A stretch of 64,000 nt of DNA from an uncultured Solirubrobacterales bacterium (GCA_963767295.1 CAVYDI010000001.1:47820-111819), one strand, 5' to 3'; positions 47,792-64,000 are shown, numbered from the stretch's first letter. The notes: generated from the letters alone by a model not told the origin. A program made the numbers and translations.

Positions 47792-48949
47792 CTACCCCGC
47801 GCACGCCCCCGTCCCCACCGCAAACGAGCGCGACTCGGCCACGCGCAGCTGCGCCCGCACCAGCGAGTTGGGCACCGCGAAGCCCCCGTGGCGATTGGCC
47901 GACGCGATCGCCGCGAACACCGTCGCCAGCACCTTCCCGGAGGCGGAGATCACCGGCCCACCCGAGTTACCGGGCCGCACGAGCCCCCGCAGCTGCGTGA
48001 CCAGCCGCAGAATCGGCCCCTGGCCGTAGGCGTTATCGGTCTCGACATTCAACGTCTGCCCCACCCGCGCCGGCTGGGCGTTGAATGGGCCGTCCTCGGG
48101 ATAGCCGAGGATCGCACCGGACGCGCCGCTCGGCGCCGACCCGGCAATCGACAAGGGCCGCAGCCCCAGCCCCGGTACACGCAGAACAGCGATGTCGTTG
48201 CGCGGGTCGAAGTCGACTGTCGAGGCCGGCAGCCCCGGAGCGACCCCGTGGATCTGTACGCGCGTGTCGCTCTCGCCCGCGACCACGTGTGCATTGGTGA
48301 CCACGAGCCCGGGCGCGGCCACCCACCCCGAGCCCTCGATCCCGAGCCCGCACGCCGTGCCCACCACCCGCACCACAGAGGACCCCGCCCCCCGAACCCC
48401 CGGCGTCGCCAGCACGCCGCGAGTGGGCGGCGCCACCGAGGCCGCCGGGCCGTTCACCGACGGCAGCGGGTCAAAGTGCGACAGCGCGTTGAGCAGTGCT
48501 CCCGACGGCGGCAGCAGCTCGTTCAGGTGGCTCAGAATCACCGACGACTGGATGTTCTGGCGCAGCGTCGCCGAGTTGGTCGACTGCACCACCACCGCGC
48601 CCACGATCCACGCGATCCCGAGTCCGACACACGCGGTCAAGATCGCCCCCAGCAGCCCATCGACAGTCTGCAAACCGGGCAACCGCAGCCTGCGGCGCGC
48701 CCGCAACCCGATGCCCTCGAGCCCCGTCGCCATCACGCCGCCGGCCAGCAGCGCGCCCAGCAGACCGAACAGCGGGGCGTACTGCGAGTGCGACCCCTGA
48801 GGCAACAGCAGCGGTCCCACACGCGTGCCGATGAACGCGCCCAGCGCGAACCCCAGCAGCGACAGCGCGCCGACGATGAAGCCCTGCAAAAAGCCGTACA
48901 AGGCGAGCAGGACGCAAAAGGCGACGATCAGCCAGTCGATCGTGGTCAC
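47792..48949 (-). CDS. MarP-family serine protease (CvpA-like TM region plus trypsin domain)
   Basis: VVTNAHVVAG, NDIAVL and GNSGGP catalytic triad motifs; N-terminal TM helices. Confidence 0.92.
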   Translation of the reverse strand: MTTIDWLIVAFCVLLALYGFLQGFIVGALSLLGFALGAFIGTRVGPLLLPQGSHSQYAPLFGLLGALLAGGVMATGLEGIGLRARRRLRLPGLQTVDGLLGAILTACVGLGIAWIVGAVVVQSTNSATLRQNIQSSVILSHLNELLPPSGALLNALSHFDPLPSVNGPAASVAPPTRGVLATPGVRGAGSSVVRVVGTACGLGIEGSGWVAAPGLVVTNAHVVAGESDTRVQIHGVAPGLPASTVDFDPRNDIAVLRVPGLGLRPLSIAGSAPSGASGAILGYPEDGPFNAQPARVGQTLNVETDNAYGQGPILRLVTQLRGLVRPGNSGGPVISASGKVLATVFAAIASANRHGGFAVPNSLVRAQLRVAESRSFAVGTGACAG

Positions 48950-49005
48950 GGGATCGTGAGGCTACTGGCGGCCGCTGAGCGGCAGCTCAGGACACCTCAA
49001 AAGTC

Positions 49006-49584
49006 CTACAGGTCCAGGGAAATCGTGGCCCAGACCTTGAGCCCGGAGGGCGAGCGGATCTGGAGCGTGAGCGGGCGGTTGTCGAAGATCGAGTTTTTCC
49101 CGACCGCCGGCAGCTTGAACAGCAGCAGCCCGCCGCCGGGGGAGCCCAATCCGGCGGTGGTGTTCGGGTTGGGCTCGGTCATGCCAGGCGCGAGCGACTG
49201 CGAGGTCCAGGCATACGGGTTTATCGCCGGGTCGAGCTTGACCGGCTTGTAGACGTTTCCCTGGGTGTCGACGATGTCGAAGTTGTCGGTCGTGGCGATC
49301 GGCTTGTTGGTCGTGTTCTGCGCCCACATGAACACGCCAAACCACATCTGGGTCGTGGACAGCGTCGAATCGCTCTTGGTGAGCCCCCTGACATAGCCCG
49401 AATCCTCGGGCGTGTACTGGTTGAGCTGGCGCGACACCTGTAGCTGGTAGTCGATCGGCCCCGCCGCGACGTAGCTGCCGATGTTGTTGGCATCGGCGAA
49501 GTTCTTGGTCTTCGCGCCGCAGCCCGCAGCCAGGGCAGCGGCGAGGGCCAGGCAAGCGGCGGTCAGGGCGCGGCGGACTCTCAC
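49006..49584 (-). CDS. Lipoprotein, DUF4352-like
   Basis: Lipobox LAAGC; F.IVDTQGNVY.P pattern. Confidence 0.7.
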   Translation of the reverse strand: MRVRRALTAACLALAAALAAGCGAKTKNFADANNIGSYVAAGPIDYQLQVSRQLNQYTPEDSGYVRGLTKSDSTLSTTQMWFGVFMWAQNTTNKPIATTDNFDIVDTQGNVYKPVKLDPAINPYAWTSQSLAPGMTEPNPNTTAGLGSPGGGLLLFKLPAVGKNSIFDNRPLTLQIRSPSGLKVWATISLDL

Positions 49585-49594
49585 GCAGCAGATC

Positions 49595-50092
49595 TTAATT
49601 GCGCGCGGCCACAGTCGGGCGCCGACCCCGTCCGCGGTCCTCCTCGAGGATCGTCCGCAGGCGCCGCAGCGCCTTGGCGGCCTGGCGCTTCATCCACGAA
49701 CGGCCCCCGAACATCTCCATCAGTCGATCCGACGGCATCACGGGAACGCTCTCATACATGTACTCGACCACGGTCGAGTCGCTCGGTCCAGGCGAGAGCG
49801 TGTAGGTGCCGAGACTGCGGATGCGGTTGTACTTGCCGTAGCGCCCGTGTTCGACGATGCGGAACGGCGCTTGTACCTCGGCGAAGGTCGCATCCGCCCA
49901 CGAGAAACGGCTCAGCGGCGCCTTGACGCGAAAGCGCGCGCCGGCGCCGCGGCCGTAGGAATCCTCACGCGTCAGATGCCATTCGACCAGGTAGTGGTCG
50001 GTGAACTCGGCGTGGTTGGCGATGTCCGCGAGATACTCGAACACCTCCTCGCGCGGGCGCGAGATCGTCGCCGAGACTCTGACCGGGTCCAC
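49595..50092 (-). CDS. SRPBCC (START-like) protein
   Basis: V.VSATISRPREEVFEYLAD..NH.E; G.GARF. Confidence 0.85.
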   Translation of the reverse strand: MDPVRVSATISRPREEVFEYLADIANHAEFTDHYLVEWHLTREDSYGRGAGARFRVKAPLSRFSWADATFAEVQAPFRIVEHGRYGKYNRIRSLGTYTLSPGPSDSTVVEYMYESVPVMPSDRLMEMFGGRSWMKRQAAKALRRLRTILEEDRGRGRRPTVAARN

Positions 50093-50111
50093 GCCGCGGC
50101 AGTCTAAACCG

Positions 50112-51563
50112 CTAATGCTTCATTGCTTGCTCGTAAGCCCCGATGTCGCAGTGGTGCCCTTGCGGGCGAGAGATGCCCCGCTGATCGGTGGACGGGCAGG
50201 CCTCGTCGCTGCCCGCATTGATCGCTGGGCTGCCCCCCAGCAGGCGGAGCGTTTTGGTCGGGCCGCCGTTGTCGGCGAGCGGGCCGAGCTTGGGGTTGGT
50301 GTTCTGCAGGTCACCGCTGGCGTTGTTGAAGCCGCACGATGTGTGGCGCTCCAGATTGTGGCCGGAGCTCGGGACGTTCCCTTCGCAGTCGGGGCCGTTC
50401 ACTGCGTTGTTGAGCGCGATGATCGTGTTGACAAAGGTGCCGCTTGATGTTCCGCTCGGCTCGAAGACCACCCCGCCGCCGATCCCGATCGAGCCGCCCG
50501 CCGTGTTGTGGGCGATGGTGAGGTTCGTGAAGTTCAACGCCGCGGAGCCGTGGTTCATGATTGGCTCAAGTGCGAGTCCGCCTCCCACTCCCGTGGCAGT
50601 CGAGTTGCCCGCACGGTTACTCGCGAAGGTGTCATTCACCATCCTCACAGACAGGCTGGCGGTCGTGTTGCTGATTGGCGCATAGTCCAGGACGCCCCCA
50701 ACTCCCTGGGACGTGCCGCCGTCCGCGACGTTTCCTGAGAACGTGTCTCTTGTCAGCTTGAGCGGCAGCCGCGGCGAGCCCGTGCTGATGATCGGGTCGT
50801 AAAGGATCGCGCCTCCAGCCACGTCGCTTCCGAGCACTCGGTTGTTAGAGACGGTGGTGGTGGTGATCGAGACCGCGGTGCCATCGGGGGGATCGATCGG
50901 CGCGAAGAACAGCGCGCCGCCGAAGCCTCGGCGCTGGGCAACATTACCCGTGATCGAGCTCTTCGAGATCTCGACCGAGCCACTGTCCGCGATACCCGCG
51001 CCCAATCCCTCCGCGCTCCGCCCCGAGGTCTTGTTGTCGGAGATCTCGCTCTGCGTGATCGTCAGCGTGCCGGAGTTCTCGATGCCGCCGCCTTCGGCCG
51101 TGTTTGACCCGGCAGCGAGGTTTCGTGTCACGGCGACGTGGCGCAGCGTAAGGTCACCGGCATTGAGGATCCCGCCGCCATCTGTCGCCTTGCCGCGGGT
51201 GATCGTGAGGCCCGCGATCGTAATCGATGCCGATGAGCTTGTGACGTCGATGACGCGGCTCTTGGACCCGGCGCTCAGAATGGTTTTGCCGGGCCCCGCC
51301 CCCTCGACGCTGACAGACGGGTTGATGACGAGCTGGCTCTTCAACTGATAGTTCCCGGCGGGCACGAGGATCGTGTCCCCGTCGTGGGCCCGCCCCAAAG
51401 CCCATCGCAGCGAACCGTGCCCCGCGTTGTGCTGGTTCGTGACCTTGATCGTGGCCGCGGCGGCGGCGCCCGGGAGGCCGGCGACAATTAGGCTCGCGAG
51501 CGCCGCGGCGCCCACGGCGACCGAGCGCCTCGCAGAAAAGAAGGTCGCGTACGTCCCTCGCAC
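50112..51563 (-). CDS. Secreted beta-helix protein with choice-of-anchor Q-like C-terminus
   Basis: GSLR.AL, repeated GGGI.N, C-terminal LGPLADNGGPT.T..LL.GSPAINAG and DQRG..RP..CDIGAYE; start uncertain. Confidence 0.8.
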   Translation of the reverse strand: MRGTYATFFSARRSVAVGAAALASLIVAGLPGAAAAATIKVTNQHNAGHGSLRWALGRAHDGDTILVPAGNYQLKSQLVINPSVSVEGAGPGKTILSAGSKSRVIDVTSSSASITIAGLTITRGKATDGGGILNAGDLTLRHVAVTRNLAAGSNTAEGGGIENSGTLTITQSEISDNKTSGRSAEGLGAGIADSGSVEISKSSITGNVAQRRGFGGALFFAPIDPPDGTAVSITTTTVSNNRVLGSDVAGGAILYDPIISTGSPRLPLKLTRDTFSGNVADGGTSQGVGGVLDYAPISNTTASLSVRMVNDTFASNRAGNSTATGVGGGLALEPIMNHGSAALNFTNLTIAHNTAGGSIGIGGGVVFEPSGTSSGTFVNTIIALNNAVNGPDCEGNVPSSGHNLERHTSCGFNNASGDLQNTNPKLGPLADNGGPTKTLRLLGGSPAINAGSDEACPSTDQRGISRPQGHHCDIGAYEQAMKH

Positions 51564-51596
51564 CCCAAGTGGAGTGTAGCGCGGCGTAGGTAGGTT

Positions 51597-51790
51597 GTGA
51601 ACCTTACAAGCGATCAGACGCCGGGCGAAGCGCAGGCCGATCAGGTCATTGAGCTCTTCACCCTGGCCTTCTTCGAGGACCCAACCCGGAGCTGGGCGTT
51701 TCCCGATCCGACCAAGCGCATGGACAATTACCGGCGCTGGTCGCGACTGTTCGTGCACAGTGCGCTCGGATACGGGCCGACGCTGGCCTG
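51597..51790 (+). pseudogene. Possible N-terminal fragment of a GNAT acetyltransferase
   Basis: LAFFEDP..SWAFPDP..R resembles puromycin N-acetyltransferase-like GNAT N-termini; no acetyl-CoA motif follows. Confidence 0.4.
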
Positions 51791-51810
51791 CATGTGGCGC
51801 GAGCGCAGGT

Positions 51811-52077
51811 CTAAGCCGCGTCGCGCTGATCGACGATTCTGATCGTGTGGCCGAACTCGGGGCCGTGCACGAGGCGCGAGTCCACGGGCGGGTCGTGCTC
51901 GAACGAAACGCACAGCTCACACACGATCCGCCCGTCGCAGTCGTAGACCCGCTCGCCCGCGAGCACCGTGCGCTGGCAGCGCGAGCAGCGATCGCAGTTG
52001 GCGGCAAATGCGTCGCTCGAGCGGCGCAGCAGCGCCAGCTGAAGCTCGGTCGTCTGGATGGAATCGGGGTCGTCCAT
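51811..52077 (-). CDS. Small zinc-finger-like hypothetical protein
   Basis: C..C.R..L.GERVY....VC.LC. Confidence 0.65.
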   Translation of the reverse strand: MDDPDSIQTTELQLALLRRSSDAFAANCDRCSRCQRTVLAGERVYDCDGRIVCELCVSFEHDPPVDSRLVHGPEFGHTIRIVDQRDAA

Positions 52078-52251
52078 GACTTCCAGTTCGGCGATACCCG
52101 TGCGAGCTCCTGCTTATGTGCTCTCACACCATCTTTACGGGAGCTTTGACACAGACGTTAGGATCATGTTTACGAGCAGGCTCGGTTTCTGGTCGCCCCG
52201 TCCAATCCAGAGGCAGATGCCTCGCCGTCCCGTACAACAAGGAGAAGCCCC

Positions 52252-52833
52252 ATGAAAGCGTGGATGTCGGGCAACGTGGCGGGGACCGGCACGTTCCGTT
52301 GCACCGAGTGTGACTACGCCCTTTCGTTGGATGCCGTCGATGAGCTGCCTCCATGTCCGAACTGCGGGGGCAAGGAGTTTGTGAGAGCGTCGCTATTCAC
52401 CACGGCGCAGGCGACGGTCGTCGAAGTGCCGGTCGGAATCGAGGATCAGGTCTGGCTCGAGGAGCTGCGCTCGAACCTGGAAGACCCCGGCCAGTACCTC
52501 GCCTACCGCTCGCCGAGCGGCGAAGTGCGCGCCTACGCGCTCGAGCGCGAGTGGACCCGCATCGGGCGCAGCCTGGCCGCCGACGTGCGCTTCGACGACC
52601 CGACCGTGTCCCGCCGGCACGCGCTCATTGTGCGCCAGCCAGATGGCCTGCGCGTACTCGATGACCGCAGCCTCAACGGCGTGTTCGTCAACGGCGAGCG
52701 GGTCGAGTGGTCGACGCTCGCCGACAACGACGAGATCGTGATCGGCCGCCACCATCTGCACTTCATCGACATCCCGGTGGTGTCTGGGATGCGCTACGCC
52801 TCGGCGGCCGAAGAAGAGCGCCAACCCGCCTAG
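52252..52833 (+). CDS. FHA-domain protein with N-terminal zinc ribbon
   Basis: C..C...CPNCG; IGR, D.TVSRRHA, SLNGVFVNG FHA motifs; AGGAG RBS. Confidence 0.92.
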   Translation: MKAWMSGNVAGTGTFRCTECDYALSLDAVDELPPCPNCGGKEFVRASLFTTAQATVVEVPVGIEDQVWLEELRSNLEDPGQYLAYRSPSGEVRAYALEREWTRIGRSLAADVRFDDPTVSRRHALIVRQPDGLRVLDDRSLNGVFVNGERVEWSTLADNDEIVIGRHHLHFIDIPVVSGMRYASAAEEERQPA

Positions 52834-52846
52834 TTCAAATATCGTC

Positions 52847-52918
52847 CCGGGCCGCGCATGCGCGGCCCGGCCCGTCGGCACATGTGCCGACGGGGGCCGG
52901 CGCACATGTGCGCCGGCC
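52847..52918. repeat. Second array of three abutting perfect 24-bp palindromes
   Basis: ccgggccgcgcatgcgcggcccgg | cccgtcggcacatgtgccgacggg | ggccggcgcacatgtgcgccggcc. Confidence 0.95.
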
Positions 52919-52948
52919 ATCCCCAATTTCTTATAGTCACCACCCTCG

Positions 52949-53743
52949 ATGGCGCACACAATCGCGGTTCTCTCTCAGAAGGGCGGCACGGGCAAGACCA
53001 CCGCGGTGCGAACGATCGCCGACGTGCTGCGACGCATCGACGTGGCCGTGCTGGCGGTCGATCTCGACCCACAGGGCAACCTCTCGGACTACTTCGACAT
53101 CGCCCCCGAGGCATCGCCAACGGTCGGCGACGTGCTGACGGGCCGCGCGGACGCGGCCGATGCCGTCCACGGCAACCTCATCCCCGCCAACCTGAATCTC
53201 GCCGAGGCGGAGCTGGCGCTCTCGGGCCGCATGGGCCGCGAGCTGTCGCTCAAGCGCGCGCTGCGCGAGGTCAAGAGCAGCTACGAGGTGGTGTTGATCG
53301 ACTGCCCACCGTCGCTCGGGCTGCTGACCGTCAACGCGCTGGTGGCCGCCGACTACGCGCTGCTCTCGGCCGAGGCGCAGTACTTCGCGCTGCAGGGGGT
53401 CGAGCAGGCGCTGCAGGTGGTCGAGCTCGCGCGCGAGAGCCTCAACCCCGAGCTCGAGTGGCTCGGCGTGCTGCTCAACATCGCCGACATGCGCACCCGC
53501 CACTCACGCGACGCCTTCGAGTCCCTGCGCAAGCACTACGGCGAGAAGCTGCTCGACACCACGATCCGGGCCTCGATCGCCTACGCCGAGTCGGCCGAGC
53601 GGGCGCTCTCGATCCTCGACTACCGCCCCGATCTCGCGGTCGACTACCTCAACGTGACCGACGAGCTGCTGCGCAGGCTGGGCATGAGCGAGGCCCGCAG
53701 CCGCCTCGGGGCCCTGGTCGGCGGTACCCGCGCGTCGGTCTAG
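52949..53743 (+). CDS. ParA/Soj family ATPase
   Basis: QKGGTGKTT deviant Walker A, DLDPQGN, IDCPPSLGLLT.NAL. Confidence 0.93.
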   Translation: MAHTIAVLSQKGGTGKTTAVRTIADVLRRIDVAVLAVDLDPQGNLSDYFDIAPEASPTVGDVLTGRADAADAVHGNLIPANLNLAEAELALSGRMGRELSLKRALREVKSSYEVVLIDCPPSLGLLTVNALVAADYALLSAEAQYFALQGVEQALQVVELARESLNPELEWLGVLLNIADMRTRHSRDAFESLRKHYGEKLLDTTIRASIAYAESAERALSILDYRPDLAVDYLNVTDELLRRLGMSEARSRLGALVGGTRASV

Positions 53744-53811
53744 GCGCGAGCCCATCCCTCTCTCGCGAGTGGGACGGATCGAGCGCTGGTAGGTAGGCAG
53801 CTGATCGCTAT

Positions 53812-55035
53812 ATGATGCGGCGCCCGGGGGCCATGTCGATCACTCGCTCGTTCAGATACTCGCCCGCGCTCGGCGTGCTCGCCGGATGCCTGATCGCGGT
53901 TTCGGCCGCGCTCGCTCTTCCAATCTGGACCGTTCAGCGCACTCCGAATCGTGGAGGGTCCGGCTACACCAACGACCTCTTCGGCGTGGCCGCCACGTCG
54001 AACGACAACGCTTGGGCCGTGGGTGACTACATAAAGGGCGCCGTGCTCGGGCCGATTAAGAAAGCTGGGGCGACGAAAAACCATCCGTGGCGTCCGGTGA
54101 TCGAGCACTTCAACGGCAAGCACTGGAGCATCGCGCAAAGCCCCACTCCCGCTGGCGGCTATCTGCAGGGCGTCGCCACCACATCATCGAAGAACGCTTG
54201 GGCGGTGGGCTGGACCAAGAAAGGCAGCAAGCAGGTGTACCGCACCCGGATCGAGCGCTGGGACGGCACGGCCTGGAAGACTGAGGCGAGCCCCAACCCG
54301 GGCACCGGCAACGACGACGAGTTGTACGGCGTGAGCGCCAGCTCGTCCAACGTCGCCTGGGCGGTCGGCGCGTACAAGAAAGGCGCCGCGTACCGGACGC
54401 TGGTCGAGCAGTGGAACGGCAAAACCTGGAAGGCCCGCCCGAGCGCAAACGCCAGTGGGGCCACCGATAACTACCTCCAGGCTGTGGCCGCTACCTCCTC
54501 TGACAACGCCTGGGCAGTGGGCGATTCCAGCAGTGGGACCACGACACAGACCCTAATCGAGCACTGGAACGGCAAAGCCTGGAAGGTCCAGCCGAGCCCG
54601 AACCCCAGCGGCTCGTCCAACAACTTTTTCGACGGCGTGGTCGCCACCTCCCCCAAGAACGCCTGGGCGGTTGGCTTCTACGAAAACGGCGTGCTACGGG
54701 ACCAGACCCTGGTCGAGCACTGGAACGGTAAGAGCTGGAAGATCGTGCCAAGTGTCGATCCTGGGGGCTCGAGCACCGACAACCTTCTACTGGGGGTCGC
54801 CGCCACCTCGCGTAAGAACGCCTGGGCGGTGGGCTGGTACTTCGACGGCACCCAGGCCCGGACGATCGTCGAGCACTGGACCGGCACGGGCTGGTACATC
54901 CAACCGAGCGCCGACCCGGGCACCAAAGGAGACGCTCTCTACGGCGTCACCGCCGCCTCCGCGAACAGCGCTTTGGCGGTAGGCGAGCGAGCCTCGAGCT
55001 TCATCCAGCGGACACTGGCCGAGCACGGGCCGTGA
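53812..55035 (+). CDS. Secreted tandem-repeat protein, paralogue of 1390..2619
   Basis: About 7 GVAATS..NAWAVG..TL.EHWNGK.W repeats; signal peptide. Confidence 0.8.
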   Translation: MMRRPGAMSITRSFRYSPALGVLAGCLIAVSAALALPIWTVQRTPNRGGSGYTNDLFGVAATSNDNAWAVGDYIKGAVLGPIKKAGATKNHPWRPVIEHFNGKHWSIAQSPTPAGGYLQGVATTSSKNAWAVGWTKKGSKQVYRTRIERWDGTAWKTEASPNPGTGNDDELYGVSASSSNVAWAVGAYKKGAAYRTLVEQWNGKTWKARPSANASGATDNYLQAVAATSSDNAWAVGDSSSGTTTQTLIEHWNGKAWKVQPSPNPSGSSNNFFDGVVATSPKNAWAVGFYENGVLRDQTLVEHWNGKSWKIVPSVDPGGSSTDNLLLGVAATSRKNAWAVGWYFDGTQARTIVEHWTGTGWYIQPSADPGTKGDALYGVTAASANSALAVGERASSFIQRTLAEHGP

Positions 55036-55048
55036 CCACTCGGGCGCA

Positions 55049-55828
55049 TCAGACCGAGCGCTGGTAGGTCCTGAACGCCCGCGTCGCGAACGCGAGGCAC
55101 ACCAGCAACAGCGCTGTCAAGAACCCTGCGCGCGAGGCGACGAGACCCCAGTCGGGGTGCGTCGAGACAGCTGCGCGGCCGGCGATCACGGCCCAGTTGA
55201 CGGGGTTGAAGTCCGCGACGTGCTGCATCCAGCGCGGGATCAGGTTTTGCTGCATGAAGGCCGAGGACAGAAACGTCAGCGGCAACAACAGGAACTGCAT
55301 GACCGCGATCAGGGTCTCCTCGCGGCGGGCGAGCAGCGCGAGACCGGCGGAGAGTGCCCCGAACGACATGCCCAGGATCACCGCCACGACTATCAGCACG
55401 ATCACGCCGCCCACGCCGCCGGGGAAGCTCGCCCCCACGATCAGCGCCAGGGCGACGATGATCAGCGACTGAATCGCGATCGTCAGGGCCGAGTTCACCA
55501 GCCGCCCGGAGATAAGCGCGCTGCGGCGCACGGGCGAGACCAGGAAGCGGTCGGTGACGCCGCGCTCGATGTCGTCGATCAGCGGCATCCCGCTCCAGCC
55601 TGAGGCAAAGAGGGCCGTCATCACGACCACGCCGGGCGCCAAGAACTCGATGTAGGAGCCGCCGTGAAAGCCGGGGATCTCCACCACCTTCTTGAACAGC
55701 GCGCCGTAGAGCAGCAGCCAGATCACGGGCTGCACGAGCGTGACCGCGATCCACCACGGCTGGCGCAGCAGCTCGCGCACATGGCGAATCGTCATGTAGA
55801 GGGTGTGACGGGCAAGGGTGACTGTCAT
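55049..55828 (-). CDS. ABC-2 type permease
   Basis: Y..FLAPG, DR.LVSPV.R..L..G, NPV.W; six TM segments. Confidence 0.92.
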   Translation of the reverse strand: MTVTLARHTLYMTIRHVRELLRQPWWIAVTLVQPVIWLLLYGALFKKVVEIPGFHGGSYIEFLAPGVVVMTALFASGWSGMPLIDDIERGVTDRFLVSPVRRSALISGRLVNSALTIAIQSLIIVALALIVGASFPGGVGGVIVLIVVAVILGMSFGALSAGLALLARREETLIAVMQFLLLPLTFLSSAFMQQNLIPRWMQHVADFNPVNWAVIAGRAAVSTHPDWGLVASRAGFLTALLLVCLAFATRAFRTYQRSV

Positions 55829-56875
55829 CGCTTGGCCTCCTCCTTGGACTGGGCCTCCTGTTCCGATTCGGCCTCCTGGAAAGTGCGGCCGGTGTAACGC
55901 AGATAGACGTCGTCGAGCGAGGGTCGGGCCACGCGCACGGCCGCGACGGCGATCCCGTGCGCCTCGAGCGCTTGCAGCACGGCCGGCACGGCGCGGCCGC
56001 CGTCCTCGGCGCGCGCCCTCAGGGCGCGGCCGTCGACCGCGACCTCACGCACGCCGACGATCTCGTTGAGCGCGTCGTGCACGGTGCCGTTGGTGACCAC
56101 TTCGACCAGCTCGACGTGGATCGCGTCGCCGCGTAGCTCGGACTTGAGCTCCTCCGGCGTCCCCTCGGCCACCACCTTGCCGCGGTCCACGATCGATAGG
56201 TGCGCGGCGAGCTGGTCGGCCTCCTCGAGGTAGTGGGTCGTGAGCAGCACTGTCTTGTCCTGGTTTGCCGCGAGCGCAGCGATCTGCTCCCACATGTCGG
56301 CTCGCACCTCGGGGTCGAGGCCGGTGGTGGGCTCGTCGAGGAACAGCACCTGGGGGTCGTGCACGAGCGCCATGGCGATGTCGAGCCGGCGGCGCATGCC
56401 GCCCGAGTACCCGCGCGCGATGCGGTCGGCGGCCTCTGCCAGCCCGAAGCGCTCGAGCAGTTGGCTGGCGCGCTCTTCGAGCGGGCGGCCGCGCATGCCG
56501 TAGAGCTGGCCCTGGAGGCGCAGGTTCTCGCGCCCCGTGGCCTGGATGTCGACGCCGGTGCCTTGGGAGACGACGCCGATCGTGCGACGAACCTTGTCGG
56601 GCTGCTCGACGACGTCAAGCGCCGCCACCGCGGCGCGACCCTCGTCGGGTTGGGTCAGGGTGGTGAGCACCTTGACCGCAGTCGACTTGCCGGCGCCGTT
56701 GGGACCGAGCAGGGCGAAGATGGTGCCGCGCCGTGCCTTGAAGCTGAGGCCGTCCAGCGCTCGCACGGCCTTCTCGCCCTTTGCCGTAGGTCTTGACCAG
56801 GCCCTCGGCCTCGATCATCACCTGCGACTCGGACGTGTCTGTCCTTCGGTTTTGAAGTTCTGTCTCCATGAGCAT
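55825..56875 (-). CDS. DrrA-family ABC ATP-binding protein, frameshift near 56778
   Basis: GPNGAGKS, YSGGM, LFLDEPT, TTHY; N-terminus IEAEGLVKTYG in ORF 56615..56875. Confidence 0.9.
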
Positions 56876-56916
56876 TCTCTAGGTATATCAGATTCTCATT
56901 TGTTAAGTGATTCGTG
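56871..56916. promoter_or_regulatory. 46-bp divergent-promoter/operator segment, copy A
   Basis: 36/46 ungapped identity to 63439..63484; abuts the ABC ATPase start codon. Confidence 0.7.
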
Positions 56917-57088
56917 GAACCAACAATTATATAGACGGGCTTGTTTTGTCGATTTCCGGTGCGCTATCGGTACGCGCGACCCTCCCGCGTCACATCCTTG
57001 CAACACCGCGAAGCCTGCAGTAGGGTGGCCGAGTCTCCGGGGCGCCGGTGACCGCTGGGGCAAGCATCGGATCAAAGGAGAGATCGAG

Positions 57089-57535
57089 ATGAGTGATGAG
57101 CGGTTCGAGGAACTCGGCATTCCGCGCCGCAGGTTCCTGAAGCGCAGCGCGGCCGCGGCGTTTGTCGCCCCGGCGGTGGTGTCATTCGCGCTCGACGGCG
57201 TGGCCGAGGGAGACACGGCCCATCGCAATGGCACCTTCACGGACCAGCGGTGCGCCAACCAGAGCTTTCCGAACCAGGCCTATGTCGAGGACAGCCTCGT
57301 CTCGGTCATCCGGGGGGCACTGCTCGGTGTGCCGGCGTGCGACATCAGCCATGCCGAGGCGAAGAAGATCGGACAACTTGCCTATGACGCGGCGTGGGCG
57401 GCGGCGGTCGATTCGTCCGACATGTGCGGGGAGATCAAAGAGCTCATAAGCGAGATCAACAAGCTCAACAAACCCGGGCTGAAGTCGGAGCTCCTTTACT
57501 ACGCGAGACAGGCGCGCATAACCGCGGGGTGCTAG
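57089..57535 (+). CDS. Twin-arginine-leader protein, candidate modified substrate/precursor
   Basis: AAAGGAG RBS; RRRFLKR.AAAAFVAPAVVSF leader; NGT and NQS sequons; four Cys. Confidence 0.75.
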   Translation: MSDERFEELGIPRRRFLKRSAAAAFVAPAVVSFALDGVAEGDTAHRNGTFTDQRCANQSFPNQAYVEDSLVSVIRGALLGVPACDISHAEAKKIGQLAYDAAWAAAVDSSDMCGEIKELISEINKLNKPGLKSELLYYARQARITAGC

Positions 57536-57585
57536 CTCGAGCGCCGTTTGGCGGCGACGGGCTCAGGGCGCAAGGTTGACTTGTA

Positions 57586-58755
57586 GTGCTGCTCAGCGCC
57601 GCGCTCATCGTCCGTGACGAAGCCGGGGTGCTCGAGGACTGTCTGGCGTCGGTCCGGGCCGTCGTAGACGAGATAGTCGTGGTCGACACGGGCTCGCGCG
57701 ACAGCTCGCCCGAGATCGCGGCGCGCTTTGGCGCCCGCGTGATCCACCATCGCTGGAGCGATGACTTTGCCGAGGCCCGCAATGTCGGCCTCGAGGCCGC
57801 CCGCGGCGAGTGGATCCTCTACATCGACGCCGACGAGCGACTGGCCCCCGTCGACCCCGCAGCGGTACGACGACTTCTGAGCGGCGCTCCTGAGGTTGCC
57901 TTTCGGCTGGGGCTGCGTCCCGATTTGCGGTCCACCCCGTATCGGGAATACCGGCTGTGGCGCCACGATCCGCGCATCCGCTTCCGGGGCCGGATCCACG
58001 AAAAGGTCACGCCCGCGATCGCCGCCGTCGCCGCGGCCGACGGCCGGCCGATCAGCGACTGCGAGCTGTTGCTGACCCACATCGGCTACGAGGGCGACCA
58101 GACCCATAAGCACCGGCGCAACCTGCCTCTGCTGCGGGCCCAGCTCGCGCGTGAACCAGACAATCTCTTCAACCGCCACCACCTCGCGCGCGTGCTGCAG
58201 GGGCTGGGAGAAAACGATGAGGCTGCCAGCGTGCTCGAGGCCGGAGTTGAGCTCGCGCGGCGGAGACCACGCGACCCGCTCGGTGTGCTGGTGTTCACCG
58301 ATCTCGTGCGCGTGCGCCGCGCGCGCGGAGATGACATCACCGAGCTGCTGGCCGAAGGGCGCCGCCGCTACCCGAACAACAAGCTGCTGTGGTGGATCGA
58401 GGCGGCCACGAACGTCAAGTCCGGCCGCTATGTCGAAGCGCTCGCGCTGCTCGACCGGCTGGTGGCGGTTGACCTGTCGGCGCTGGCGCCCGATGAGCCC
58501 GCCTACGACGAGCGCATCTTCAAGGACTTCGCCCAGGAAGCGCGCGGGGCTTGCCTGTTTCATTTGGGCCGCTACGCGGAAGCCGCCGCCGCCTACGCCG
58601 AGGCGATGCGGATTGACCCTTCCGAACTCGGGTACCGCGCCAAGTGGATGGCCGCGCTTGGGCGGGCGGGGCCGGATCAGGAGGGGTCGGGCAGCTTGGC
58701 TCGGGCGCAAGGCGCAGCGGGCTCGACTAGCCCGGCGGACATACTGCGCGCCTGA
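57586..58755 (+). CDS. GT2 glycosyltransferase with C-terminal TPRs
   Basis: LIVRDE, DEIVVVDTGS.D, W.DDFA.ARN, WILYIDADE, HIGY; TPR helices. Confidence 0.92.
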   Translation: MLLSAALIVRDEAGVLEDCLASVRAVVDEIVVVDTGSRDSSPEIAARFGARVIHHRWSDDFAEARNVGLEAARGEWILYIDADERLAPVDPAAVRRLLSGAPEVAFRLGLRPDLRSTPYREYRLWRHDPRIRFRGRIHEKVTPAIAAVAAADGRPISDCELLLTHIGYEGDQTHKHRRNLPLLRAQLAREPDNLFNRHHLARVLQGLGENDEAASVLEAGVELARRRPRDPLGVLVFTDLVRVRRARGDDITELLAEGRRRYPNNKLLWWIEAATNVKSGRYVEALALLDRLVAVDLSALAPDEPAYDERIFKDFAQEARGACLFHLGRYAEAAAAYAEAMRIDPSELGYRAKWMAALGRAGPDQEGSGSLARAQGAAGSTSPADILRA

Positions 58756-58756
58756 A

Positions 58757-60001
58757 GTGGATATCGAGCGCCTGATCGTGCTCGCGCCCATCGAGCCGGC
58801 CCCAACCGGCAACGGCTTGGCGATGCGAACCCAGCTGTTCTGCCGCTCAGTCCCGCGCGGAGTTGACGTACTGAGCGTGGTTGTGCCGGTTGCAGGACGG
58901 CTATTTCGCCGTCTGGCATTGAGGGGGGTGAGGATCGTTCCGAGCGCTAACACGGAGGCCCGTGCGGGCGTACGTGCGCTCGTGGAGAGCGGGGTCTGGC
59001 GCAACCGGCTGCAGCGCGCGGGCGCTCTCCCCCACCTCGCGCGCGCGGCCTCGCCCGGGCTGGCCGACGCGGTGCTGGCCGCGTGCGAGGTGTCGGGTGG
59101 CGAACGGATCGCCCTGCACGTGATGCGCTCCTATCTGGCGCCGCTTGGGGTCGCCCTCGCTGAGCGGCTGCCCGCAGCCTGGGTCACGCTCGACCTCGAC
59201 GAAGACGACGCGCAATACGAGCGCGAACGCGATGACGCCGATGAGGCCGCCGCCTACGAACGTCTGCTGGGCGTGTTCGCGCCTTGCTTTGACGGCCTAT
59301 GCGCTGCAGCGGCCGCAGAGGCCGAGGCGATATCGCGCCGCCACGAGCTGGCGATCGAGCCGATCCCAAACGCTGTACGGCTCCCCCGCCCGCGTCCAGG
59401 ACGAGCCGATCGGCCCGAGGGGGTCGCTGGCCGCGACCCGGTGTCACTCCTCTTCGTTGGCAACCTCACATACGCGCCCAACATCGAGGCGGCACGGACA
59501 CTGGTGGAGGAGATCCTGCCGCGGCTCAGGCGCGCGCTTGGGGACGTGGTGCGCGTGACGCTGGCGGGGCGCCACGGTCACGAGCTGCTGGCGCTGGGGG
59601 GCGAGGCCGTCGAGCTGGCGGGCTACGTGCCCAACCTGGCGCCCCTGTACGCGTCGGCTGACGCAGTCGTCGCGCCGCTGAAGACGGGCGCCGGCACCCG
59701 CATAAAGGTCCTCGAGGCATTCGCGCGCGGGGTTCCGGTGGTCGCTTCTCCAGCCGCCGTGGCCGGCTTGGAGGTCGTCGACGGGCGCCAAGTACTAGTG
59801 GCTGCCGACTCTGAGCAGGCCGCGGATGCGATCGTGCGGGTGGTCACGGAGAAAGGCTTGGCTGCCCGGCTCGTGGGTGAGGCTCGCCAGCTGGTCCGGG
59901 ATCGCTACTCACTCGAGGTGGTGATCCCGAGCATCCAGGAATTCTTTAACCGCGCCGCCAAGCGCGCGCGGAGCCGCGCTCAGCTGTCGGCGCCGGCGTG
60001 A
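58757..60001 (+). CDS. GT4 (GT-B) glycosyltransferase
   Basis: LFVGNLTYAPN, PL..GAGTRIKVLEAFA.G.PVV. Confidence 0.9.
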   Translation: MDIERLIVLAPIEPAPTGNGLAMRTQLFCRSVPRGVDVLSVVVPVAGRLFRRLALRGVRIVPSANTEARAGVRALVESGVWRNRLQRAGALPHLARAASPGLADAVLAACEVSGGERIALHVMRSYLAPLGVALAERLPAAWVTLDLDEDDAQYERERDDADEAAAYERLLGVFAPCFDGLCAAAAAEAEAISRRHELAIEPIPNAVRLPRPRPGRADRPEGVAGRDPVSLLFVGNLTYAPNIEAARTLVEEILPRLRRALGDVVRVTLAGRHGHELLALGGEAVELAGYVPNLAPLYASADAVVAPLKTGAGTRIKVLEAFARGVPVVASPAAVAGLEVVDGRQVLVAADSEQAADAIVRVVTEKGLAARLVGEARQLVRDRYSLEVVIPSIQEFFNRAAKRARSRAQLSAPA

Positions 60002-60267
60002 GCCTCCCAGCGCACCAGATTGCGCTCGACCAGATCGTCGAGCCCCGCTCGAATGTCCTCGAGCGGCAGGGCGACCAACTCGAATGCTTCCGCCAGCACG
60101 CGCGCGATCGCCGGCAGGTCCCGGCTGCCGTCGCAGAGATCGAAGATCATCGCGGCCGAGGGGTTCAGGTGGTGGACCATGTCGTGGGCGGGGTCGTAGA
60201 CGACCAGGCCGTCCTCGGCCTCGTTGATCTCGAGTCCGGCGACCCGGCGGGGATTGGCGTCGCTCAT
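59980..60267 (-). CDS. PqqD-family protein (RiPP recognition element)
   Basis: DGLVVYDP....H.LNPSAAMIFDLCDG.R....IA..L..F.........L..L....LV. Confidence 0.88.
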   Translation of the reverse strand: MSDANPRRVAGLEINEAEDGLVVYDPAHDMVHHLNPSAAMIFDLCDGSRDLPAIARVLAEAFELVALPLEDIRAGLDDLVERNLVRWEAHAGADS

Positions 60268-60314
60268 CGTTGTCCTGGGTGCCTTTCGCGCGCGCACCGT
60301 AGCAGGGGCTTTTC

Positions 60315-62406
60315 TTGATCCCGCGCATAGCGCACTTCGTCTTCGGGCTCGGCGAGCAGCGCGAGCCATTTCACTTCCTGCACTACGTCTCGATCGAGTC
60401 CTGCCGGCGCGTGCTCGCGCCCGAGCGGATCTATTTCCACCACAAGCAACTGCCGTGGGGCCCCTGGTGGGAGCGCACCGCTCCCCACGTGACGCCCGTC
60501 GAGGTCGATCACGTACCGGCGGTGCTCGCCGCCGACTACGTGCCCAGCCGTGTGCCGGAGCGCTACCGCTACGCGCACCATGCCGACTTCCGCCGCCTGG
60601 AGGCGCTGATCGAGTACGGCGGGCTCTACGCCGATATCGACACCATCTTTTTGCGTCCGTTTCCGCTGGAGTTGTTCAGGGCTCCGTTCGTGATCGGGCG
60701 CGAAATCGAGGTGCGCGACGAGCTCACGGGCGAGCTGCGACCGTCGCTGTGCAACGCCCTGTTGCTGAGCGAGCCTAGGGCTGAGTTCGCCGTTGAGTGG
60801 AGGGCGCGTATGGCAGACGCCCTCAACGGAACCTGGAGCAACCACAGCGGCTTTTTGCCCGAGCGGCTGAGCAGACTCATGCCCACCACGGTGCGCATCG
60901 AGCCAGAGGCGAGCTTCTTTTCATTCCAGCCGACCGCCGCCGGCTTGTCGAAACTGCTCGAGCGGCGGGCGGAGGTTCCCGCGGAGGCACTCAGCATTCA
61001 TCTGTGGGCGCATCTGTGGTGGGAGCGAACCCGGCGCGACTTCAGCCAGGCCCATGCGGGCTGGTACACGCCGGCTCTGATTCAGGGGATCCCGACGACG
61101 CTCGCCGAAATCGTCAGGCCATATCTCCCTGAGCTGGTAGCTGCCCGGCGCCGTGGGGTGCGGGCACCCAGCACGGCTCCCAGACGTTGGCGATACCTGT
61201 TTTTGGACGAACACAGCGGCTACGGCGTCGCCGCACAGCGCTGCATCGATGCGCTGGTGGAATCCGGAGCCGAGCTTGAGGCGCTCCCATTCATCCCCGG
61301 CGAACGGTCACGGGTTTGCCTACCAGCCGGCACGGCCGCTGGCCTCGGCAGCCAGCGACGAGGCGGTTGTGGCCCATCTGGTGCCGGAGTACCTGGGGTT
61401 TGTCAGGGGTCGGCTCCCTGAGACCTTTCTCGTCAGCCACACAATCTGGGACACCGACCGACTCCCGGAGCACTGGGTTGCATTTCTCAACGAGGCCGAT
61501 CTGGTGGTGACGCCGTCGCGGTTCAGCGCCGAGGCGATGTCCCGCTCGCCCGTCACGACCCCGATCGAGGTGGTACCTCACGTGGCCCCGCAGCTGAGTG
61601 ACCAACCGTCGCTCAACTGGCCGCCTGTTGCCGACGGCACTTTCGTCTTTTACGCGATCGCCGAATGGACCGAGCGAAAGGCGCTCGAGCTGACCGTTGA
61701 GGCGTACCTGCGCGCGTTCGGCGCTCGAGATCGCGTCCTGCTCGTGATCAAGACCTCGGCCGCGGATCGACGTCGTCGCCGCGCGGCGCCGGGCTCCGCG
61801 GTGGAAGGAACGGCGGCCTGGGCGCTAGCCCGGCTGCTCGCTGGTCATCAGGACCCACCCGCGGTCAACCTGATCACCCGGGACCTGACAAACGCCGAGA
61901 TCGAGGCCCTGCATCGGCGCGGCGACTGCTTCGTTTCTTTGACCCGCTCCGAGGGTTTTGGCCTCGGTTCCTTCGACGCAGCCGCGCACGGCAACCCCGT
62001 GGTGATCACCGGCTTCGGAGGCCAGCTCGACTATCTGGCCGGCGCTCCGTACCTCGTGCGGTTCGACCTCGTCCCGGTGGAAGATCCGATGGGCTATCCC
62101 AGCTTCGCGCCCGATCAGCGATGGGCGCAGCCGGACATCGACCACGCCGCGTCCCTCATGCGGGCGGTGGCGCAAAAGCCGGATGAGGCCAGACAGGCGT
62201 GCGGGCCGCTGGCTGCCGAGATCCGGGACCGGTTCCGCCCGGAAGCGGTCGCCGCGGCCTTCCGCGGTGCGGTCGAGCGCCACATTCGCCGAGAGCGCAA
62301 ACGACCGCCACCGACGGGATGGGAGCATCAGGCTATGAGTCCCTCACGGCGCAGAGTGCCTAGACACTCCTGCACCTCGGCCGCCGGCGAGTCGGGTAAT
62401 TCGTAA
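60315..62406 (+). CDS. Fused GT32-like (DXD) plus GT4-like glycosyltransferase, frameshift near 61300
   Basis: MIPRIAHFVF, H.ADF.RL..L..YGGLYADID; then SGYG.AA, W.ERK, SL.RSEGFGL...DAAA.G.PVV. Confidence 0.8.
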
Positions 62407-63401
62407 GTTCGCTGAATACGCTCGACGATTTGGGCGACCGAGTGCTCCCCCGTGCAGAGCTCGAACACGATCGCGGCGGTGTCGTTGAGACGGTGAGCGC
62501 GCTTGCGCCCGAGCTCGTAGACGATCAAGCCATCCGCGGCCTCGCGCAACTCGAGCCCCGGCGTTTGTACCGGGAAGGCTTTGAGCGCGGGCGCGCTTAG
62601 GCTCGTTACCCCCGGCCGAGCCAAGATCACCGGCATCGTGGCTGGCAATCCTGCGCGGCAGGCTGCAAGCGTCTCAGCCAGGGATGCCCGCCGCGAACGC
62701 ATTTCGTGGCCCAGCAGGTAGAGCTCTAAGCCGAGAGTCTGGTAGCTCGCCAGCGCAGCCTCCGGTTCGACGTCGCGAAGCTCGAGTTCCTCGGGCGAGA
62801 GCTCGGTTATCAGAAGCAGTTGCGGGTTTGCGGCGATGGTCCTCTGCAGGCCCTCGACGATGTCGTGGTCATAGCCCTGGGCGTCGGTTTTGACGACATC
62901 CACCTTCGCCGGCAGCACGTCGTCGAGCCGCACACAACGGACGCTCGTCGGCGCTTCCCCGAGGGGCACGAGGCGGTGCGCGCCTCGGTTTGTCTCGTTG
63001 AGCTCGAGCGCCATCTCGCCGGAGGCCGAATACGCAGCGAACGGCATCACCTGCGCGTTGGTGCACTCGTTGCGCACGAGGTTGCGCTGCAACAGGTCGC
63101 GATTGCGCGTCTCGGGCTCGACCGCAATCACGCTCCCATTGGTACCGACCAGCTTCGAGGCGAGGACGCTGAAATAACCGACGTGCGCGCCCACGTCGAC
63201 GAACGTATGCCCCGGGCGGAGGTTCGAGGCGAGCCAGGCGCCCACGTCCGGCTCCCATAGGCCGCCGTCGGCGAGCACCGCGGTGATCACCTCGTCGTGG
63301 CGGGGCAGCAGCAACGGTCCGACCGCCGTCTCTAGCTCCACAACGGGCTCGCTCGGGGGCGTCGAGAACGTGCTCCGCAGCGCATATTCGTCTTGGCTCA
63401 C
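62328..63401 (-). CDS. FkbM-family methyltransferase fused to a C-terminal PqqD/RRE domain
   Basis: FVDVGAHVGYF, AVEP, VKTDAQGYD; C-terminal DGLIVYE....HRLNDTAAIVFELCTG. Confidence 0.88.
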   Translation of the reverse strand: MSQDEYALRSTFSTPPSEPVVELETAVGPLLLPRHDEVITAVLADGGLWEPDVGAWLASNLRPGHTFVDVGAHVGYFSVLASKLVGTNGSVIAVEPETRNRDLLQRNLVRNECTNAQVMPFAAYSASGEMALELNETNRGAHRLVPLGEAPTSVRCVRLDDVLPAKVDVVKTDAQGYDHDIVEGLQRTIAANPQLLLITELSPEELELRDVEPEAALASYQTLGLELYLLGHEMRSRRASLAETLAACRAGLPATMPVILARPGVTSLSAPALKAFPVQTPGLELREAADGLIVYELGRKRAHRLNDTAAIVFELCTGEHSVAQIVERIQRTYELPDSPAAEVQECLGTLRREGLIA

Positions 63402-63438
63402 GGGAGAATCCTTTCATCGCGGTCGTGCACGCTCGACT

Positions 63439-63484
63439 AGCATTGTCTAGGATCATCAGATTCTCAGCGACTAAGTGATTAGTG
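63439..63484. promoter_or_regulatory. 46-bp divergent-promoter/operator segment, copy B
   Basis: 36/46 identity to 56871..56916; ends in the GTG start of the MarR gene. Confidence 0.7.
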
Positions 63485-63976
63485 ACTACAACGAAATCCC
63501 AGAGGATGGAGTTAATGCGCCGGCTCGGCGAGGAGATCCGCGCTGGTCAACGCACGGTCGACGTCGTCGACGACTTGGTGGCCGAGCTGATGGGCATCAA
63601 CCGAACCGACGCCCGCTGCATCGACATCCTCGAGCAGCACGGTCGCATGAGCGCCGGCGAGTTGGCCGGTTTCAGCGGCTTGACGACCGGGGCCGTGACC
63701 GCCGTAGTTGACCGGCTCGAACGGGCTGGCTACGCCGAACGCGCGCCTGACACCACCGATCGGCGGCGCGTGCTGGTTGAGTTGACCCCCGAGGCACGGG
63801 AGCTGATCTGGGAGCTGATGGGCCGCCCCATGCGCGAGGCAGCCGTGCCCATGATGAAGCGCTACTCCGACGCCGAGCTCGAGCTGCTGGCCGAGTTTCA
63901 CCGGCAGAGCCGGGAGCTGCAGGAGCGCCACGCGGAGTGGCTCAGGAGCCGCAAACCCCGCTCGGGCCACGGCTAA
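63482..63976 (+). CDS. MarR-family transcriptional regulator
   Basis: GIN.TD...ID.L, SAGELA..SGLTTGAVT.VVDRLE.AGY..R.PD..DRRRV.V.LT. Confidence 0.93.
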   Translation: MTTTKSQRMELMRRLGEEIRAGQRTVDVVDDLVAELMGINRTDARCIDILEQHGRMSAGELAGFSGLTTGAVTAVVDRLERAGYAERAPDTTDRRRVLVELTPEARELIWELMGRPMREAAVPMMKRYSDAELELLAEFHRQSRELQERHAEWLRSRKPRSGHG

Positions 63977-64000
63977 CGCGAGTGGCCCGAGCGGGGGCTA

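Follow-up and report, generated by a model that had tools for sequence, protein, structure and literature searches.

The window considered here, a stretch of 64,000 nucleotides (nt) from an uncultured Solirubrobacterales bacterium (GCA_963767295.1 CAVYDI010000001.1:47820-111819), contains the genes for a MarR-type regulator and for an ATP-binding cassette (ABC) exporter, held apart by a cassette of glycosyltransferase, PqqD-domain and FkbM methyltransferase genes that has a copy of one and the same control region at each end. On the minus strand, drrA (55825..56875) encodes an ATPase with both an ABC_tran domain (PF00005, E 1.8e-31) and the DrrA1-3_C domain (PF13732, E 3.4e-11), and drrB (55049..55828) encodes a separate ABC-2 membrane protein (PF01061, E 1.2e-28), the combination that marks a DrrAB-type exporter. 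On the plus strand, marR (63482..63976) encodes a winged-helix protein (PF01047, E 1.1e-14; PF12802, E 7e-12) whose recognition helix and wing (TTGAVTAVVDRLE ... DRRRV) are conserved with those of relatives. The GTG at 63482, taken as the marR start in an earlier annotation of the window by inspection (the sequence-only reading), is borne out by an N-terminal peptide, V-x-T-T-K/N-x-H/R/Q-K/R-x-x-L-M, that is conserved across close relatives. The regulator and the transporter are not directly divergent from one shared intergenic region, as they stand 6.6 kb apart with their own copy each: copy A (56864..56938) has the drrA start on its left and a remnant of marR codons on its right, while in copy B (63432..63506) the left side holds a remnant of the drrA start and the right side the marR GTG with the first codons of that gene. 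What lies between (56939..63431) is the 6.5-kb cassette.

Extent and uniqueness of the repeat

The copies were originally remarked on as a pair of 46-mers (56871..56916 and 63439..63484), and alignment reproduces both the coordinates and the ungapped match at 36 of 46 positions (78% identity). That match is the core of a larger direct repeat of ~75 nt. Repeat detection lengthens the pair to 53 nt (56864-56916 and 63432-63484, 75% identity), and an ungapped three-way comparison carries it to ~75 nt in total (56864-56938 for copy A and 63432-63506 for copy B). In that comparison copy A keeps its homology as far as ~56938 (GTGGAACCAACAATTATATAGAC against GTGGATACAACAAAATTACATAGAG in locus L135), beyond which the sequences are unrelated, and copy B is ancestral from ~63432 rightward, running into marR; it is the reach of copy A's homology to single-copy relatives that sets the duplicated block at ~75 nt. 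The match exceeds chance by a wide margin: when the flanks of the cassette are aligned locally the score is 27, whereas shuffled sequence gives 12.3 +/- 1.7 (maximum 19).

In a window of 67% G+C the repeated motif forms a local A+T-rich island in each of the two intergenic regions. It is not a motif common genome-wide, as just two sites were found in the genome concerned, which is metagenome-assembled (3.1 Mb in three contigs, 91% complete). Exact and one-mismatch searches of it with the blocks ATCAGATTCTCA, TAAGTGATT and AGCATTnTCTAGG return only copies A and B, and so does an nhmmer profile built from A, B and locus L037 (E 1e-16 to 1e-17, with the next match at E = 16). An Rfam search of 56600-63700 matched nothing.

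The undivided locus in relatives

That an ancestral marR<>ABC-2 divergent pair was split by the 6.5-kb cassette, with duplication of its promoter, had been proposed in the sequence-only reading, and the proposal is supported by the relatives as well as by the coding remnants and the shared AGG described below. An uninterrupted marR<>drrAB arrangement, when sought in relatives, was found at 62 of 62 loci examined (11 from genomes of the same genus and order, 25 from soil metagenome contigs and 26 from further genomes of the genus), and at none of them are the ABC pair and marR unlinked. Of 40 relatives, all those whose genome encodes a good MarR ortholog carry marR in direct divergence from drrA-drrB (the 11 loci); scanning of metagenomes yielded 25 loci with sufficient DNA upstream, 25/25 uninterrupted; and a search of all 346 species genomes of the genus found the MarR ortholog in 82, from which the 26 further loci were retrieved, 26/26 of them uninterrupted. 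Wider synteny on both sides of marR/drrAB is also kept in relatives. The focal window is the only locus examined with anything between marR and drrA, which by parsimony points to one insertion event, in the focal lineage.

The converse, that the split arrangement is ancestral and that relatives have lost the cassette by recombination between the direct repeats, has the attraction that such deletion happens readily and would produce just the single-copy state that the relatives have. However, it needs loss at all 62 loci, across the genus and a second family and including the seven closest relatives, and is disfavoured by parsimony; the cassette is at unrelated sites in the genomes that have it; and the decayed marR remnant in copy A, with its in-frame stop, is a derived state. 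Ancestral splitting is in consequence held to be very improbable.

The ancestral locus is an ordinary divergent pair of a MarR regulator and an ABC-2 exporter. In most relatives there are 60-90 nt between the genes, including the drrA ribosome-binding site, and a conserved palindrome, ATCTTAG-N3/4-CTAAGAG, is followed immediately by the ATG start of marR; more distant relatives also have flanking CTAAG/CTTAC sites beside the palindrome. The focal clade keeps only the CTAAG half, the left half having degenerated, and no inverted repeat of at least 10 nt is present inside either copy A or copy B. In the seven closest relatives (L037 and L135-L140; MarR 70-77% and DrrA 81-90% identical), the focal-type motif occurs once, between the drrA start (ATGCTAATGGAG, minus strand) and the marR GTG.

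The drrA start itself is less definite. The CAT chosen in the sequence-only reading, which corresponds to an ATG at 56875, is a possible start, but the ATG at 56869 is equally so, both being in frame and conserved in close relatives. In the focal clade (L037 and L135-L140 included) drrA has an N-terminal extension of 17 codons (56819-56869 in the window), conserved in length and poorly so in sequence, which stands in place of the GGAGGTG ribosome-binding-site leader of other relatives, with the ATG abutting the motif. From this placing drrA may be leaderless in the focal clade; the same label, as applied earlier to the whole divergent pair, was drawn from position and is to be taken as provisional. 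Two relatives, at loci L003 (genome G016) and L152 (G697), have a 5′-truncated drrA (residues ~152-279 and 111-302 left, respectively) whose remainder abuts the marR operator. These rearrangements are independent of each other and affect the same intergenic region, which suggests that it breaks readily.

Two copies of one ancestral region

Each copy contains a trace of the gene that it no longer serves. The GTG of copy A and the CAT of copy B open just the short stubs that had been described for them, VEPTII* and MLVERARPR*. The first of these, from GTG 56914 to TAG 56934, is a decayed remnant of marR codons 1-8; the second starts at ATG 63443 on the minus strand and is a remnant of the drrA start, with ATGCTA..GAG kept and MLVE... 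where relatives have MLME.... Further, A and B have AGG in common at a position that is variable in all relatives and is never AGG among them, which argues that they are sister copies. The 5′-end remnants of both genes in the ‘wrong’ copies, together with the shared derived AGG, establish a true duplication: A and B are duplicates of one ancestral intergenic region and not convergent operator sites, convergence being excluded by the remnants of drrA and marR coding sequence.

The reading so disposed of, that the two sites are independent operators of one MarR regulon and are alike through binding constraint, would fit the frequency with which MarR regulators bind both their own promoter and a target promoter, and the identity of the copies in short blocks only. 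It fails to account for ~75 nt of similarity in the same order and spacing without gaps, for 5′-end coding remnants that have no role in binding, or for the single ancestral copy directly seen in relatives, and is scarcely tenable. For practical purposes the coding remnants refute it.

Over the 53 nt, A and B differ at 13 positions; compared with relatives, A has 7-15 differences and B 14-20. From this the event is taken to be old and copy B to have evolved faster. The differences are not evenly spread. Ten mismatches in the 46-mer cluster into four runs (P = 0.0015, permutation), such that AGCATTnTCTAGG, ATCAGATTCTCA and TAAGTGATT are intact in both copies while no position of the 3-nt and 5-nt spacers is the same; the 12-mer and 9-mer blocks thus left unchanged between A and B are largely invariant in close relatives also. 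This is the pattern that purifying selection on regulatory sites in both copies would give, though it does not in itself identify the sites. Retention of three blocks while the spacers diverged completely is the ground for considering both copies most likely to be functional regulatory DNA.

Misassembly, with the cassette joined into the locus artificially, deserves mention given that the genome is metagenome-assembled (91% complete, in 3 contigs) and that two frameshifts show imperfect base quality. One of these breaks the drrA frame by a single extra T in the TTT run at 56780-56782 (CCCTTTGCC here against CCCTTGCC in L135 and L139) and is either the mark of a recent pseudogene or a homopolymer sequencing error. 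The other divides a cassette glycosyltransferase gene (DXD-GT4, below) that is a single open reading frame of 668-691 amino acids in G529, G711, G829, G023, G677 and a JGI contig and that is in different frames in the window. Both are in short homopolymers and within 7 kb, or more narrowly 5 kb, of each other; the genome is probably a long-read metagenome assembly, and both frameshifts may be sequencing errors or real decay. However, repeats of 75 nt that are ~75% identical are neither long nor similar enough to lead an assembler astray, each junction has matching gene remnants that have decayed independently, and the composition of the cassette is typical of the focal genome. An assembly artefact is thus most improbable.

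Arrival of the cassette

Its distribution marks the cassette as a mobile accessory module. This gene order recurs in genome G529 and in about seven others among the 346 genomes of the genus (~8/346), with the GT2-TPR glycosyltransferase 69-76% identical, and it is also present in metagenome contigs. In all but one pair of genomes the flanking genes differ, giving at least six neighbourhoods, none of them with marR or drrAB orthologs. Six of these other cassette loci gave flank alignment scores of 12-19, within the shuffle range, and so are without flanking direct repeats. In composition the cassette is typical of its genome (G+C 67.8% as against 67.2%; tetranucleotide distance at the 13th percentile) and composition therefore neither supports nor dates a transfer. 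A domain search of the cassette open reading frames found no recombinase or transposase, and the genes that flank the cassette are drrA and marR; terminal inverted repeats of the cassette are absent (score 9, against a null of 8.6 +/- 1.4), and there is no tRNA gene in 48000-64000. Searches with the FkbM-PqqD protein were made at several levels: an exact-sequence look-up matched no record, a homology search of 5.8 billion proteins gave a best identity of 57%, and a scan of the genome contigs gave PqqD-domain matches only. No closer cassette-bearing relative or intermediate state came from these searches.

The explanation held to with good confidence is that the cassette split a compact divergent pair and in doing so duplicated its ~75-nt control region, both copies of which are most likely still functional and under the same MarR. 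The ancestor had drrB-drrA and marR pointing away from a putative bidirectional promoter/operator region, P, of 60-90 nt (drrB-drrA <- P -> marR). In the focal lineage the 6.5-kb cassette of glycosyltransferase, PqqD-domain and FkbM methyltransferase genes would have inserted and split the pair, in an event that copied ~75 nt, made up of the whole intergenic region, two to four drrA codons and ~8 marR codons. Each end of the insert has a complete copy, A presumably still serving drrAB on the outer left and B still serving marR on the outer right.

As to how, the candidates are a long staggered break that is filled in with capture of a fragment, replication template switching, and integration of a circle by single crossover. 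A one-step target duplication is more economical than a tandem duplication followed by insertion at the joint, since both copies are complete and have the same ancestral ends, and a one-step event with a long target duplication, by staggered-break fill-in or by template switching, is favoured. The single crossover would differ in that one of the copies came in with the cassette, on a circle that had a homologous marR/drrA-type region from a related strain, with Campbell-type integration and with the copies diverged from the start. Crossover of this sort yields direct repeats of any length with no recombinase; the difference between A and B (13 of 53) is as large as that between A and other species (7-15), with B the most divergent; and a cassette composition matching that of the genome is to be expected of a closely related donor. 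Nevertheless, the unique AGG and TG common to A and B are combined in no sampled relative, copy B is no closer to any sampled relative than it is to A, none of ~12 other cassette loci examined adjoins a marR/drrA-type region, and both copies end at the same ancestral positions, which crossover within longer homology does not require. Introduction of a second copy by Campbell-type integration is considered unlikely.

Control of the cassette genes

The inward half of each copy faces the cassette. On the right, the fkbM-pqqD start codon is 37 nt from the 46-nt core of copy B and 30 nt from the extended block. With just 30-37 nt between them, ribosome-binding site included, any promoter for fkbM-pqqD must be in copy B, in its former drrA-type half, and that half is the only upstream DNA that this gene has. 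On the left the situation is different. A promoter-like element, TTGCAA-N17-TAGGGT (56998..57026, plus strand), is 91 nt upstream of the first cassette gene, and elements of the form TTGnnn-N17/18-TAnnnT occur 66-106 nt upstream of the gene for the protein with the twin-arginine signal in 7/8 cassette loci (L111 and L127-L131 included), compared to a mean of 0.16 loci in shuffles. The cassette 5′ leader (56939-57075) aligns with other cassettes from the ribosome-binding site onward only, the sequence around the promoter-like element being not alignable. The precursor-side operon (so called from the earlier designation of its first gene product as a precursor) thus appears to have arrived with its own predicted promoter, and all that the marR-type half of copy A could add, from 84 nt upstream of the promoter-like element, is MarR-dependent read-through.

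Recognition of both copies by the same MarR would link fkbM-pqqD, and perhaps the cassette as a whole, with the switch governing the ABC-2 exporter. The sequence-only reading had suggested MarR control for both sides of the cassette; from the positions involved, such control is plausible for the fkbM side and optional for the precursor side. The analysis shows the duplication with its extent, the undivided ancestral state and the mobility of the cassette; promoter activity, MarR binding at both copies and the way in which the duplication arose are what we infer.

Several considerations weigh against this explanation. The presence of its own conserved promoter-like element means that MarR control is not required on the precursor side. 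A strict sigma-70 consensus scan detected no promoter in either copy, so that the term promoter is used here on grounds of position and homology, nor did attempts to define an operator in the focal clade, from palindromes and from ‘ATTC’ direct repeats with 18-nt spacing, give a clear palindromic site or any other convincing one. Copy B is the most diverged of the set (14-20 of 53 from relatives) and its drrA-type half may have changed function. The drrA frameshift, if real, means that the exporter arm is decaying. The cassette has no recombinase, and we know of no standard mechanism for a target duplication of 75 nt.

A more far-reaching suggestion can be made, tentatively and with considerable doubt: the 75-nt duplication could be the footprint of an undescribed, recombinase-independent route of insertion in these Actinomycetota (staggered-break capture with fill-in, or template switching) that provides each end with a full promoter/operator copy, and the arrangement may be retained through MarR co-regulating the glycosylation/PqqD cassette with an ABC-2 exporter that handles its product.

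Relation to known arrangements

Divergent pairs of MarR and an ABC-2 (DrrAB-type) exporter are a close counterpart, with a MarR winged helix, a DrrA-like ATPase having DrrA1-3_C, and an ABC-2 permease; in the relatives the genes are divergent around a region of 60-90 nt with conserved CTTAG/CTAAG palindromes that overlap the marR start. The focal genes differ in being separated by 6.5 kb, each with a full copy of the control region once shared.

Direct repeats flank integrated elements of several types, among them the attL/attR sites of actinobacterial integrative elements and the target-site duplications of transposons. Here too an accessory gene block is bounded by direct repeats derived from the target. 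Unlike such elements the cassette lacks an integrase, a transposase, a tRNA target and terminal inverted repeats, its other sites are without flanking repeats, and 75 nt is far longer than the target duplications of transposons.

The derived state is to be grouped with the capture and reuse of promoters, including ‘putative mobile promoters’ (Nijveen et al. 2012, PMC3575422, in which Matus-Garcia et al. 2012 and the citT promoter capture of Blount are both cited), and with the activation of transferred genes through duplication. As with putative mobile promoters, a non-coding promoter segment is present in two copies per genome, in front of genes that are not homologous and not as part of any known mobile element, and the potential that these have for rapid regulatory rewiring of acquired genes is the same. 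The adjacent genes are non-paralogous, those for the signal-peptide protein and FkbM-PqqD being unrelated to marR and drrA, and the segment belongs to no recognized mobile element or RNA family (no Rfam match and only two copies in the genome). In extent of identity the present case falls short of the at least 80% over at least 50 nt that was adopted there, having 75% over 53 nt and 78% over 46 nt. It differs also in that a complete bidirectional promoter/operator stands in duplicate, symmetrically on both sides of an insertion, with four transcription units on two copies, and in that both the single-copy ancestral state and the limits of the duplication can be seen directly. The activation of transferred genes when a spontaneous duplication supplies them with a host promoter (Zhang et al. 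2024, PMC11111574) is similar to the extent that host sequence is duplicated beside newly acquired genes as a route to expression. There it involves selected tandem amplification in laboratory constructs with 9-bp microhomology at the borders, whereas here the duplication is single, old, natural, 75 nt long and flanks the insert. For symmetrical duplication of a bidirectional promoter/operator on the two sides of an insertion, a literature search gave no direct precedent.

The wiring of acquired genes into host regulation is usually inferred statistically, and in the present case the states before and after can be read directly. If both copies are bound by the same MarR, a regulon would have expanded in one step from two to up to four transcription units, in a compact and testable design that could be useful to synthetic biologists. 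A recombinase-free 75-nt target duplication also raises the question of how DNA is inserted in a little-studied soil lineage. General importance is moderate, as this is a single evolutionary example known from sequence alone.

Cassette genes and other features of the locus

On the plus strand the cassette begins with a gene (57089..57535) for a 148-amino-acid protein with a twin-arginine signal (RRRFLK), for which Pfam gave no match; this is the product that had been called a precursor. Next, also on the plus strand, are genes for a GT2 glycosyltransferase with TPR repeats (57586..58755) and a Group-1 glycosyltransferase whose start codon is uncertain (58787..60001). A stand-alone PqqD-like protein is encoded on the minus strand (59980..60267), and the plus-strand gene for a DXD glycosyltransferase fused to GT4 (60315..62406) is the one split by a frameshift, near 61297-61307. 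The last gene (62328..63401), on the minus strand, is for the FkbM methyltransferase with a C-terminal PqqD domain, and has a GTG start at 63401 and AAAGGA as its ribosome-binding site.

Elsewhere the cassette is found next to other transporters. A fused ABC ATPase/ABC-2 permease is directly upstream of it in G023 (L131, 12451-14073) and G677 (L132), a DrrA-like ATPase with an ABC-2 permease is ~4 kb from it in G704 (L130, 4878-6436), and an ABC ATPase is directly downstream in G829 (L129, 4544-5581). Counting by neighbourhood, the four other genomes in which the cassette adjoins ABC or ABC-2 exporters represent three independent cases. Adjacency of this kind hints at a functional link with export, and landing beside drrAB may not have been neutral.

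To the left of drrB, between it and conserved upstream genes, 53812-55035 encodes a 407-amino-acid protein with repeated ‘WNGKxW ... NAWAVG’ units; tblastn gave no match for it at the matching place in syntenic loci (L038, L042 and others), where the gap is ~400 nt shorter. Within the cassette, the GT4 and fkbM-pqqD reading frames are convergent and overlap at their 3′ ends by 79 nt (62328-62406).

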